Shown piece by piece: positions 2,102-50,530 of a stretch of DNA of 64,000 nt. A program made the position numbers and the translations under genes. The notes beneath the pieces are model-generated. The model saw only the letters and a list, made by a program, of their open reading frames with translations. It searched no databases and was not told where the DNA came from. Each line of letters begins with the position of its first letter. The stretch's first letter is position 1. Origin of the DNA: Escherichia coli (lineage in GTDB: Bacteria; Pseudomonadota; Gammaproteobacteria; Enterobacterales; Enterobacteriaceae); the NCBI RefSeq assembly GCF_003018255.1, contig NZ_CP027440.1; one strand, 5' to 3'.

Positions 2102-3310
2102 TTATGCAAATTCTGCGGGCGCGTTCACTTTGCCTAAATGAATGGCATCCAAAGCAATCATTTTTTCTTCGTTAGTCGGAATTACGGCGCAAATGACACG
2201 CGCATTTTCACTGGAAACAATTCGCTCTCCAAAAGAGTTAGAGCGATTATTCATTTCTGTATCAATCTCTACGCCTAATACAGCTAAATGTTCCATGACC
2301 AGACGACGAATTAAACTTGAATTCTCTCCTATTCCGCCGGTGAATATAATTCCATCCAGGCGATGTAATGAAGCAGCGTGTCCGGCAATATGACGGGCAA
2401 TTCGGTGAACAAAGGTTTTAATTGCCAGTTGCGCGCGTTCGTGACCTTCATGCCAGGCTTTTTCCAGAACACGTAAATCCGAAGAAAGGCCGGAAATACC
2501 TAATAATCCCGACTCTTTATTCACTACGCGCTCCAGGTCCCCCAGGCTCTGGTTGGTTTGGCTGGCGACCCAGGACATCGCACCAAAGTCGACATCGCCA
2601 CTGCGGGTACCCATCATCAAGCCTTCCAGCGGCGTCATTCCCATGGAAGTGTCAACACTCTGACCGTTGCGAACCGCGCAGATTGACGCGCCATTGCCAA
2701 GATGCGCCACAACCAGGCCGGAGTCATCTTCCGCCAAATTCAGCAAAGAATGCGCGCGCTGGGAAACATAGCGGTGCGACGTGCCGTGGAAACCATAACG
2801 GCGTACACCTAACTCTTCATAATATTTCCACGGCAGGCCGTATAAATAAGCTTCCGGAGCCATCGTCTGGTGGAAACTGGTATCAAATACCGCTACCTGA
2901 GTTACGCCCGGAAATAATTGCTGCGCCGATTCAATACCACTTAAATTGGCGTAATTATGCAGGGGTGCCAGTGGAGAAACGCGACGGATATTATCAATGA
3001 CTTCATCGGTAATAATGGCGGACTCGGTAAAAATACTGCCGCCGTGAGCGATGCGGTGGCCAATTAAGGCCACACTGTCATTTAAATTCCGTTTTTCCAG
3101 TTCAAATGCAATTGCCTTCAATGCACCTTCGTAGCTGTGGTGAGCCAGCGGTGCTGGCTCTCCCCCATTTACGGATAAGAATGCATTTTCCGAGTTAATA
3201 CCGTCGGCAATACCTGACATTAATACTTCACAGTCGCTGGCATTGAGTACGGAAAACTTAATCGAAGACGAACCACAGTTAATAACCAAAACAACCGGAA
3301 ATTCATTCAT
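2102..3310 (-). CDS. tdcD: propionate/acetate kinase
   Basis: ORF track 2102..3322; N-terminus [19 protein letters not shown] matches acetate-kinase family TdcD; start trimmed to the ATG at 3310. Confidence 0.92.
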
Positions 3311-47857: not shown

Positions 47858-50530
47858 TTAAGCGATGGTACGTTGGATTTCGATGATTTCGAATACTTCG
47901 ATCACATCGCCAGTGCGGACGTCGTTGTAGTTCTTAACGCCGATACCACATTCCATACCGTTACGGACTTCGTTAACGTCATCTTTGAAGCGGCGCAGGG
48001 ACTCCAGCTCGCCTTCGTAGATAACCACGTTGTCGCGCAGAACGCGGATCGGGTTGTGACGTTTAACCACACCTTCGGTAACCATACAACCTGCGATGGC
48101 ACCAAATTTCGGTGATTTGAATACGTCACGAACTTCCGCCAGACCGATAATCTGTTGTTTCAGTTCCGGAGACAGCATACCGCTCATTGCCGCTTTCACT
48201 TCGTCGATCAGGTTATAGATGACGGAGTAGTAACGCAGATCCAGGCTTTCCGCTTCAATCACTTTACGTGCAGAGGCATCAGCACGTACGTTGAAGCCAA
48301 CCAGGATGGCATTGGACGCCGCAGCCAGGGTAGCGTCGGTTTCGGTGATACCACCTACGCCAGAACCGATGATCTTCACTTTAACTTCGTCAGTAGACAG
48401 TTTCAGCAAGGAGTCGGAGATAGCTTCCACAGAACCCTGTACGTCTGCCTTCAGGACGATATTCACTTCGTGAACTTCGCCTTCGGTCATGTTGGCGAAC
48501 ATGTTCTCGAGTTTAGATTTCTGCTGACGCGCCAGTTTAACTTCGCGGAATTTACCCTGACGATAGAGTGCAACTTCACGCGCTTTCTTCTCGTCACGTA
48601 CAACGGTAACTTCATCACCCGCAGCCGGAACGCCGGACAGGCCGAGGATTTCCACCGGAATGGACGGACCCGCTTCCAGCACTTCCTGACCCAGTTCGTT
48701 GCGCATCGCACGAACACGACCGTATTCGAAGCCACACAGAACGATATCGCCCTTGTGCAGAGTACCTTCACGTACCAGAACGGTAGCAACCGGACCACGA
48801 CCTTTATCGAGGAAGGATTCGATAACCGCACCGCTCGCCATACCTTTACGTACCGCTTTCAGTTCCAGAACTTCCGCCTGCAGCAGGATAGCGTCCAGCA
48901 GCTCATCGATACCAGTACCCGCTTTCGCAGACACATGTACGAACTGGCTTTCACCGCCCCACTCTTCCGGCAGGATGCCGTACTGGGAGAGTTCGTTCTT
49001 AACGCGATCCGGATCGGCTTCTGGTTTATCGATCTTGTTCACTGCAACCACCACCGGAACCTGCGCCGCTTTCGCGTGCTGGATTGCTTCGATGGTCTGC
49101 GGCATTACGCCGTCGTCGGCAGCAACAACCAGGACTACGATGTCCGTTGCCTGCGCACCACGAGCACGCATTGAAGTAAACGCGGCGTGCCCCGGGGTGT
49201 CCAGGAAGGTGATCATGCCGTTTTCAGTTTCAACGTGGTATGCACCAATGTGCTGGGTAATGCCGCCCGCTTCGCCAGAGGCCACTTTCGTTGAACGAAT
49301 GTAGTCCAGCAGAGAGGTTTTACCGTGGTCAACGTGACCCATGATGGTCACAACCGGCGCGCGCGGTTCAGCCGCTGCACCCGTGTCACGGTCGCTCATT
49401 ACCGCTTCTTCCAACTCGTTTTCACGACGCAGGATAACTTTGTGGCCCATCTCTTCAGCAACCAGCTGTGCGGTTTCCTGATCGATAACCTGGTTGATGG
49501 TTGCCATTGCGCCCAGTTTCATCATCGCTTTGATGACCTGAGAGCCTTTAACCGCCATCTTGTTCGCCAGTTCGCCAACGGTGATGGTTTCGCCGATCAC
49601 AACGTCACGGTTAACGGCCTGAGCAGGCTTCTGGAAGCCTTGCTGCAGCGAAGAACCTTTACGTTTTCCGCCCTTACCGCCACGTACTGCTGCGCGTGCT
49701 TCTTCACGATCAGCTTTTGATTCAGCGTGTTTGTTGCCTTTCTTCGGACGCGCAGCTTTCGCGTTACGACCACGGCCACGGCCGCCTTCGACTTCACGAT
49801 CGCTTTCGTCTTCTGCCTGGCGAGCATGTTGAGAAGTAGTAACGTGATAATCGCTGGAATCTTCAGTCGGTTCCGCGTTATCAGTCCATTTGTTTTCTTC
49901 CGCCATACGACGTGCTTCTTCAGCAACGCGACGTGCTTCTTCTTCGAGTTTACGACGCGCTTCTTCTTCGGCTTTACGCTTGAGCTCTGCAGCTTCCTGC
50001 TCACGGCGGGCTTTTTCAGCCTGGGCGTTTTTAGTCATATCGTCTTGTTGATTGCTCACTTTGTCTTTTTCCGCAGCTTCACGTTTCGCTTGTTCAGCAG
50101 CTTCACGCTTAGCTTGTTCTGCGGCCTCACGTTCAGCTTTTTGTTGCGCCTCACGTTTGGCCGATTCTTCTGCCTCACGACGGGCTTGCTCTTCCGCTTC
50201 ACGCTGCGCTTGCTCTTCCGCAGCAAGGCGTTCAGCCTCTTGCGGATCGCGTTTCACAAAGGTGCGTTTCTTGCGGACTTCGATTTGTACCGATTTGCTT
50301 TTTCCACCGGTACCAGGAATGTTAAGGGTGCTGCGTGTTTTACGTTGCAGCGTCAATTTGTCCGGGCCTGAATTTTTCTGATTCAGGTGGTCAATCAAAG
50401 TCTGTTTCTCTTGTGCAGACACAGAGTCGTCAGCAGACTTCCGGATACCTGCATCAGCAAATTGCTGTACCAGGCGTTCCACGGAGGTCTGTCGCTCTGC
50501 GGCCAGCGTTTTAATCGTTACATCTGTCAT
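47858..50530 (-). CDS. infB: translation initiation factor IF-2
   Basis: 890-aa [32 protein letters not shown]; GTPase motifs; charged repeat-rich N-terminal region. Confidence 0.97.

Follow-up and report, generated by a model that had tools for sequence, protein, structure and literature searches.

Within the 64,000-nucleotide stretch of Escherichia coli DNA that we analysed (the window), positions 49700-50300 look like a tandem-repeat array while coding for protein. This raises the question of whether the repetition belongs to the DNA or to the peptide, and of what it serves. An open reading frame search and translation place the segment in a coding sequence at 47858..50530 on the minus strand, which is infB and encodes IF2-1 (IF2 alpha) of 890 amino acids. 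The annotated E. coli infB is 100% identical to the window gene over 931 bases, and infB has a match in 5,425 of 5,426 complete E. coli genomes. Pfam matches, all above the gathering scores, comprise IF2_N (twice), IF2_assoc, GTP_EFTU, EF-G_D2, IF-2 and GTP_EFTU_D2, and the full IF2 domain set is present (IF2_N, the GTP_EFTU G-domain, EF-G_D2-like domain II, IF-2 or C1, and GTP_EFTU_D2-like C2). PDB sequence matches lead to E. coli IF2 entries, and the annotation of an identical strain gives the operon order rimP-nusA-infB-rbfA-truB-rpsO-pnp, with tRNA-Met upstream.

The protein begins with the compact IF2N (N1) subdomain (residues 1-50; 50381..50530, minus strand), which was matched by Pfam IF2_N in two stretches and by PDB 1ND9 over residues 2-50. 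The IF2_assoc region (residues 56-94; 50249..50365, minus strand; PF08364, E=2.2e-17) immediately precedes the repeats in the protein chain, and AlphaFold2 predicts a beta hairpin in it (strands 57-71 and 79-93). For residues 95-313, the Pfam search returned no domain. The periodic stretch is the E. coli infB segment that encodes the IF2 N-terminal extension, in the N-terminal third of the gene, and sits between the N1 (IF2N)/IF2_assoc module and a second IF2N-like subdomain. It does not differ from the known N-terminal region encoded by the same gene (domains I-II of the six-domain model; IF2-1, IF2-2 and IF2-3). The layout of N1 subdomain, linker and N2 subdomain is the one described before (PMC12297416, PMC3334882, PMC12919033), and the internal starts (codons 158 and 165) and operon context are likewise those of known E. 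coli infB. The region is ordinary and already described, with nothing new in kind, and what we add is minor: a unit table, a codon-identity test, charge-register statistics and unit-number alleles.

To characterize the periodicity, we calculated the autocorrelation of the DNA for 49700-50299, with 1000 codon-shuffled versions of the interval as the null. The value at lag 24 was 0.465, compared with 0.322 in the shuffles (z=7.07), and lag 48 was also elevated (z=4.88). Tandem Repeats Finder detected arrays of period 24 at 50065-50139 (3.1 copies), 50166-50221 (2.3 copies) and 49929-49978, and one of period 21 at 49895-49942. An earlier note on this DNA had proposed periodic repeats here, to be checked by tandem-repeat detection and given up if autocorrelation revealed no period; both analyses bear the proposal out. 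The unit length of 24-30 bp given there did not hold, as the main array is strictly 24 nt and a 30-nt period was absent over 49700-50299 (z=-0.11). A region-wide 21-nt period was absent over the same interval as well (z=0.87), the 21/24-nt signal being local only. The proposed extent also has to be narrowed, since 49883..50245 is periodic whereas 49700..49880 is charged yet aperiodic.

The most regular part, array A (50060..50227, minus strand; gene nt 304-471), consists of seven tandem units of exactly 24 nt (8 amino acids), as defined by the unit table, the Tandem Repeats Finder arrays and the spacing of the octamer GCYTCACG. This octamer occurs six times at exact 24-nt spacing (50076, 50100, 50124, 50148, 50172 and 50196) and 17 times in the whole window, against 4.6 matches expected. 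The encoded consensus is R-E-A-A/E-E-Q-A-K (REAAEQAK), seven times head to tail over residues 102-157, and the EAEEQA(R)REAEE-type repeats previously read in the infB N-terminal coding region are indeed encoded. Block B (residues 166-216; 49883..50035, minus strand), delimited by the Tandem Repeats Finder arrays, AlphaFold2 and i,i+4 charge pairs, has its repeat core at 49895..49978, where a looser repeat of 7/8 residues gives a period of 21/24 nt. At the protein level, lags of 8 and 16 gave autocorrelations of 0.45 and 0.37 over residues 96-216.

The 24-nt period of the DNA results from an 8-residue motif that occurs seven times in the protein. At positions where units share the same residue, the same codon was used in 48 of 100 cases, while 49.9-50.5 are expected from codon usage. 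Codon sharing is therefore at chance level, and the DNA repeat is a by-product of the peptide repeat. For example, units 5 and 6 both encode REAAEQAK, yet 5 of their 24 nucleotides differ, all synonymously. Comparison with locus L003 from another enterobacterium showed that orthologous units share 22.7 of 24 nt and paralogous units 15.5 of 24, and the substitutions between the two loci fall on codon positions 1, 2 and 3 in the ratio 9/9/52. In both the unit comparison and the ortholog, residues were conserved while synonymous sites diverged. As the units are far nearer to their orthologs than to their neighbours and show no excess codon identity, array A is old. What preserves it is selection on the peptide, and recent duplication or homogenisation of the DNA does not account for it. 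The earlier view that the region mimics a tandem array falls short, since the peptide contains a true in-frame array of seven units and whole units are occasionally gained or lost among strains. The repeat-like DNA is neither a mobile element nor a CRISPR-like array, and it is not a regulatory repeat or an overlapping gene either.

Next, we asked what structure the repeats may adopt. AlphaFold2 predicts two helices, at residues 96-158 and 166-216, separated by a break at 159-165 with pLDDT below 50. Helix A (50057..50245, minus strand) contains array A, and helix B coincides with block B. The pLDDT is 86-92 for residues 101-140 of helix A (10-residue block means) and 81-87 in helix B, values to be read with the tendency of AlphaFold2 to draw any E/K/R/A-rich segment as helix. 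With a pTM of 0.25 for the IF2 model, no packing is confident and the relative arrangement of the helices is not given by the model. We also counted charge pairs in the sequence itself, using shuffles of the same composition as the null. Opposite-charge i,i+4 pairs number 17 in helix A, against 8.0±2.2 in shuffles (z=4.0), and 20 in helix B, against 7.7±2.1 (z=5.8). Like-charge i,i+4 pairs are absent from both helices, where 7-8 are expected (7.9 in helix A). Opposite-charge i,i+3 pairs are enriched in helix B only (z=3.7). Helix A has 19 E/D, 14 K/R, 18 A, 8 Q and 2 hydrophobic residues other than Ala among its 63, and helix B has 14 E/D, 15 K/R, 11 A, 2 Q and 5 such hydrophobics among its 51.

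ER/K-motif single alpha-helices occur in the lever extensions of myosin VI/X and in caldesmon. The IF2 blocks resemble these domains in their E/K/R composition (with A and Q), the scarcity of hydrophobic residues, the excess of opposite-charge i,i+4 pairs, the lack of like-charge pairs and the prediction of uninterrupted helices of 51-63 residues. They differ in being richer in Ala and Gln than classic E4K4-type sequences, and in IF2 a stable monomeric helix is a prediction drawn from the model and from sequence statistics. We infer that the repeat blocks are patterned like an ER/K (charged) single alpha-helix. In the literature searched, we found no paper that places bacterial IF2 in the charged single alpha-helix class. 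Highly charged, long alpha-helical segments also precede the conserved GTPase core in IF2 homologs of other lineages (eIF5B; types 3, 5 and 7 of PMC12919033); these are likened by description, and their lengths and motifs differ between lineages.

The reading that competes best with a helical one is a low-complexity polyampholyte linker or intrinsically disordered region (IDR), in which what counts is composition, for instance in RNA-dependent, cold-induced condensation, and the 8-residue register is a frozen relic of old duplications that means nothing for structure. The region has been called a long flexible linker (PMC12297416), and E. coli IF2 is reported to have an N-terminal IDR of about 320 residues that phase separates with RNA and has a role in cold fitness (PMC11838494). 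The lack of a Pfam domain in residues 95-313 and the variation of length and sequence between genera fit this as well. On the other hand, the charge register is non-random for the composition, the repeat blocks have pLDDT 81-92 compared with below 50 in the truly variable segments, their residues have been conserved during synonymous divergence, and the preprint that reports the IDR itself mentions predicted helical regions in agreement with spectroscopic data (PMC11838494). We regard disorder as possible but doubtful as the main account of the register; it is compatible with the helical reading, and the two are not exclusive. The earlier description of a known flexible region agrees with this literature and with the predicted helix breaks, which lie between and after the repeat blocks. 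For the blocks themselves, which are predicted as long helices, it is right only in part.

The break between the blocks is also where the shorter isoforms begin. GTG codon 158 (50057..50059, minus strand; gene nt 472-474) is the internal in-frame start of IF2-2 (IF2 beta) and ATG codon 165 (50036..50038, minus strand; gene nt 493-495) that of IF2-3. Their positions match the start-codon knockouts g474c for IF2-2 and t494c for IF2-3 (Madison et al. 2012, PMC3334882). Such a pair of internal starts is characteristic of enterobacterial infB. The last unit of array A immediately precedes GTG158, and both codons are held at the segment that separates the two repeat blocks (residues 159-165). Because GTG158 and ATG165 lie between the blocks, array A is confined to full-length IF2 and block B is common to all isoforms, as deduced from the start-codon positions, with start use according to PMC3334882.

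This arrangement could also mean that the repeat acts mainly in the mRNA, where a purine-rich sequence would keep the surroundings of GUG158 and AUG165 unstructured and so allow internal initiation of IF2-2 and IF2-3. The 120-nt windows over gene nt 391-600 fold with -22 to -23 kcal/mol, compared with an infB mean of -34.5±6.3, and are among the least structured of infB, with 66-70% purine; moreover, array A ends exactly at GTG158. However, windows across units 1-5 (nt 271-450) reach -36 to -41.5 kcal/mol. They are as structured as average or more so, which means that structure is not reduced by the array taken as a whole. Equally unstructured windows are found at nt 121-300, outside the repeats, and neither a strict 8-codon register nor conserved residues are needed for low structure. 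We thus consider an mRNA function unlikely to explain the array.

Much less probable still is a coiled coil that dimerises IF2, or a helical hairpin that folds back on itself. Two long predicted helices with a short break between them would suit such a fold, but a heptad pattern with hydrophobic a/d positions was not found in the IF2 repeat blocks. No hydrophobic heptad seam exists, as hydrophobics other than Ala amount to just 2 residues in helix A (of 63) and 5 in helix B (of 51). Array A has a period of 8 instead of 7, and the pTM offers no confident packing.

To see whether the number of units changes between strains, we compared complete E. coli genomes. Array A has seven units in 99.7% of them; 18 of 5,426 (0.33%) carry 3, 6 or 8 units instead, always as whole units. 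The earlier note had called for a comparison of IF2 lengths across strains, and the length is nearly fixed, with these 18 whole-unit variants. The variants were counted by four junction-specific searches of the assemblies and cross-checked against 17+1 outliers only; the count covers the unit number of array A. Ranking BLAST matches with the 3-unit deletion allele of strain N68 failed because normal alleles tied as two perfect pieces, and short junction-specific queries and a 104-nt half-array were used instead. The 3-, 6-, 7- and 8-unit alleles have gene lengths of 2577, 2649, 2673 and 2697 nt, checked in the annotation. In a spread sample of 59 genomes, the IF2 length was identical in all. 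In other genera, the length of the array region differs by inserted repeat-like blocks of about 8-24 residues, according to an N-terminal alignment built mostly on N-terminal fragments of IF2 and not on full-length proteins.

These alleles bear on a further alternative, in which the array is a DNA-level VNTR (a contingency locus) whose copy number is rapidly tuned between strains. Like bacterial in-frame coding minisatellites, array A has head-to-tail units of constant period (7 x 24 nt) and rare gains and losses of whole units, and the breakpoints that were examined or used for junction queries lie in exact inter-unit repeats of 10-14 nt. Unlike in those loci, the infB units have diverged at synonymous sites to chance level and show no concerted evolution. 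Inter-unit nucleotide identity beyond what the peptide requires was not found (48 against about 50 same codons; 22.7 against 15.5 of 24 nt), units correspond one to one with those of another enterobacterium, and frequent copy-number polymorphism was not found among the 5,426 genomes. In addition, a unit length that is a multiple of three allows no on/off switching. A role as a rapidly tuned VNTR is therefore hardly credible.

Long stop-free frames on the opposite strand, which had been pointed out before, do exist, but that they encode an overlapping protein has next to no probability. One stretch of 216 codons is codon-aligned with infB (49721..50368, plus strand) and a second spans 109 codons (50052..50378, plus strand); the corresponding plus-strand ORFs are 49727..50371 and 50052..50381, and the third plus-strand frame is closed in the repeat stretch. 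A stop in the codon-aligned frame requires one of the rare sense codons TTA, CTA or TCA in infB, so the openness of this frame follows from codon content: it has 1 stop in 200 codons with a shuffle sd of 0, and other parts of infB leave it open over 352 and 141 codons. The other two antisense frames have 4 and 5 stops, against 5.4±1.9 and 5.8±2.0 in codon shuffles. The frame with the 109-codon stretch is the one with 4 in 200 codons, and was rejected on stop count only, as it shares its third positions with infB, which makes synonymous counts uninformative. Against the ortholog, the 216-codon frame shows 4 synonymous and 55 non-synonymous codon differences. Neither openness beyond codon content nor, in the 216-codon frame, purifying selection was found.

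Overall, we are confident that the array is a coding repeat of infB that is driven by the peptide and carries a helical charge register. In an alpha-helix, a period of 8 residues corresponds to two i,i+4 steps. Arg/Lys and Glu alternating four residues apart would form a continuous intrahelical salt-bridge ladder with almost no hydrophobic residues. This register points to semi-rigid helical spacers as the most likely role of the blocks. Joined by flexible hinges, they would keep the N1 domain, with NusA being bound by IF2 Domain I (PMC12297416), distant from the ribosome-bound core, a role to which we give an even chance. At 37 °C, cells tolerate the loss of the entire N-terminal region (PMC11838494, PMC3334882), and any spacer role is therefore not essential. 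Whole units may be gained or lost on the rare occasions when replication slips or units recombine unequally, and the near-fixation at seven suggests selection on length, low slippage owing to the synonymous divergence of the units, or both.

More tentatively, and with rather less than even likelihood, the seven-unit array could be a length-calibrated ER/K helical ruler that sets the reach of N1 from the ribosome-bound core in full-length IF2 only. By our arithmetic, about 56 residues at a rise of about 1.5 Å per residue would span about 8 nm. If this is true, stabilising selection on reach would explain seven units in 99.7% of genomes despite slippage, and the rare natural alleles would be ready tests of the geometry of transcription-translation coupling. 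More generally, the charge register is relevant to the choice between disorder and a series of long helices for the IF2 N-terminus, and the natural 3-, 6- and 8-unit alleles could be used to test the effect of linker length on IF2-NusA contact, cold fitness and DNA-damage phenotypes.

The repeat region lies inside an 890-codon open reading frame on the minus strand (47858..50530), found by ORF search, whose translation is IF2. The segment 49600-50530 is 100% identical to the annotated infB of E. coli strain DETEC-S792, and the annotated neighbourhood consists of tRNA-Met, rimP, nusA, infB, rbfA, truB, rpsO and pnp. The same segment was matched at 90-100% identity in 5,425 of 5,426 complete E. 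coli genomes, with no match in the remaining one; in a few E. coli genome records the segment matches at two or more places, one of them on a plasmid. Pfam matches in IF2 comprise IF2_N (two stretches, the better-scoring at residues 314-364), IF2_assoc, the GTP_EFTU G-domain, EF-G_D2, IF-2 and GTP_EFTU_D2, and the Pfam search placed no domain in residues 95-313. Sequence matches in the PDB were E. coli IF2 entries, 3JCJ among them, and the IF2N NMR structure 1ND9 matches residues 2-50. IF2_assoc (50249..50365, residues 56-94) sits just upstream of the repeats; AlphaFold2 predicts a long beta hairpin there (E57-71 and E79-93, pLDDT 70-87 as 10-residue block means), and many columns of this region are invariant across the aligned orders.

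To describe the periodicity, we used Tandem Repeats Finder, autocorrelation and motif spacing, and all three bear out the periodic repeats that an earlier note had seen in the infB N-terminal region. Tandem Repeats Finder reported three period-24 arrays (50065-50139, 50166-50221 and 49929-49978) and one of period 21 (49895-49942). The motif GCYTCACG occurs six times between 50076 and 50196 at a spacing of exactly 24 nt. The DNA autocorrelation of the 200 codons examined, set against 1000 shuffles of those codons, is significantly raised at a lag of 24 nt (0.465 vs 0.322, z=7.07) and at 48 nt (z=4.88); at 30 nt it is not (z=-0.11). Thus, of the proposed 24-30-bp unit length, 24 nt stands and 30 nt does not. 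Likewise, the proposed range of 49700-50300 has to be shortened, as 49700..49880 (residues 217-277) is charged without being periodic; the periodic part is 49883..50245. The strict part, array A, is made of seven units of exactly 24 nt (50060..50227, gene nt 304-471), the last encoding REAAEKDK. The core of the second, looser repeat, block B, spans 49895..49978. Residues 96-216 of the protein are autocorrelated as well, with values of 0.45 for a lag of 8 residues and 0.37 for 16, and the reading of the region as charged repeats of the IF2 N-terminus is supported.

Next, we asked at which level the period is held. Comparison between array A units showed the same residue at 100 of 168 position pairs, and the same codon at 48 of these 100, where chance gives 49.9 (whole-gene usage) or 50.5 (regional usage). 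The peptide REAAEQAK is encoded by unit 5 and again by unit 6, but with five differences among the 24 nt, every one synonymous. A second comparison was with the infB of a related enterobacterium (locus L003; N-terminal protein identity 94%). Here orthologous units have 22.7 of 24 nt in common with array A and non-orthologous units 15.5, and substitutions over residues 78-277 fall at codon positions 1, 2 and 3 in numbers of 9, 9 and 52. Array A is therefore older than the lineage split, and each unit evolves on its own, constrained by purifying selection on the protein and with no concerted evolution. The period in the DNA follows from that in the peptide, and array A is not a DNA-level repeat element. 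The infB of L003 (L003:1154-3831, GCA_917184645.1) was called as two ORFs (682 aa and 210 aa) that overlap where they meet, at 3199-3202, suggestive of a frameshift, or of an assembly error, in its C-terminal half.

The internal in-frame starts of the shorter isoforms, codon 158 GTG for IF2-2 (50057-50059) and codon 165 ATG for IF2-3 (50036-50038), both follow the last unit, which ends at gene nt 471; published start-codon knock-outs are g474c and t494c (PMC3334882). Therefore, array A is present only in full-length IF2, and block B in all isoforms. Around GUG158/AUG165 (gene nt 391-600, 49931..50140) the mRNA is 66-70% purine and among the least structured in infB, with windows of -22 to -23 kcal/mol per 120 nt against an infB mean of -34.5±6.3, consistent with internal translation initiation. 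As low mRNA structure does not hold for the first five units, it was set aside as the reason for the repeat.

Long stop-free frames on the opposite strand, also remarked on earlier, do exist: one of 216 codons, codon-aligned with infB (49721..50368, plus strand), and one of 109 codons (50052..50378, plus strand), the third plus-strand frame being closed. A stop in the codon-aligned frame requires a sense codon TTA, CTA or TCA, which infB hardly uses, and other parts of infB leave this frame open for 352 and 141 codons. Its openness is thus a matter of gene-wide avoidance of these codons and not a property of the repeat region. We found no evidence for an antisense gene: the other two frames contain 4 and 5 stops per 200 codons vs 5.4±1.9 and 5.8±2.0 in codon shuffles, and codon differences from L003 are 4 synonymous and 55 non-synonymous in the 216-codon frame, compared with 45 and 14 in the infB frame.

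We then compared infB length across strains. The span was the same in all 59 genomes of a spread sample of full-length matches. Junction-specific queries of the 5,426 complete genomes detected 18 whole-unit variants (0.33%): loss of one unit at the unit 1/2 boundary in four genomes (ETEC4077, infB 2649 nt), loss of unit 6 in five (two checked, 2649 nt), duplication of unit 6 in eight (two checked, 2697 nt) and one genome, strain N68, with three units. N68, the weakest match (infB 2577 nt), carries an in-register 96-nt deletion with its breakpoint within the 10-nt repeat AGCGTGAAGC. E. coli arrays thus have 3, 6, 7 or 8 units, always whole. The 18 variants agree with 17 low-identity outliers plus one partial match, so the queries likely missed few array A alleles. 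Among the protein-database matches listed, an E. coli-labelled fragment (P0005) lacks one unit and an unlabelled E. coli-like fragment (P0042) lacks four. The length of the array region also differs in other Enterobacterales, Vibrionales and related orders; the segment between the anchors VRKKRT and DYHVTT measures 104 to 164 residues among the matches listed, and the differences appear in the alignment as inserted repeat-like blocks of about 8-24 residues. Also among the matches listed, seven public proteins (P0056-P0058, P0061, P0068, P0069, P0070) are truncated 'IF2', mostly of 310 aa, whose sequence is identical to E. coli IF2 as far as residue 196-212 and out of frame beyond it. The frame is lost within the block B purine runs GAAGAAGAAG and GAAGAAAACAAA (49883..49945, residues 196-216), and some of these products stem from complete-genome-sized contigs. 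As a real frameshift in block B would remove all IF2 isoforms, they probably reflect mistakes in sequencing or assembling purine runs.

Finally, we analyzed the repeat blocks as possible helices, in which an eight-residue period would equal twice the i,i+4 spacing. Against composition-preserving shuffles, residues 96-158 contain 17 opposite-charge i,i+4 pairs (8.0±2.2 expected, z=4.0) and no like-charge pairs (7.9 expected); residues 166-216 contain 20 (7.7±2.1, z=5.8) and again no like-charge pairs. Apart from Ala, the first segment has 2 hydrophobic residues in 63 and the second 5 in 51. From a 23-sequence alignment (A1), AlphaFold2 predicted helices at exactly these residues, with 10-residue block means of pLDDT of 86-92 (residues 101-140) and 81-87 (residues 171-210), a break at 159-165 (pLDDT <50) and low-confidence coil beyond residue 216; the pTM is 0.25, so the mutual arrangement of the helices is undefined. 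We take the charge pattern to be that of ER/K-type charged single alpha-helices. Charge register, predicted helices and ER/K pattern together lead us to read the blocks as putative semi-rigid helical spacers with hinges between them. The literature is divided in how it words the IF2 repeat region, and our search found no paper naming it a charged single helix.

These results confirm that the feature is the N-terminal extension of E. coli IF2, already known to be charged and repetitive, and add the demonstration of a peptide-driven period, statistics on the charge register and a short list of alleles that differ in copy number by whole units. The IF2 N-terminal region is dispensable at 37 °C and matters in the cold and in DNA-damage tolerance (PMC11838494, PMC3334882). 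Its N1 subdomain binds NusA (PMC12297416), and helical spacers would keep this subdomain distant from the ribosome-bound core.
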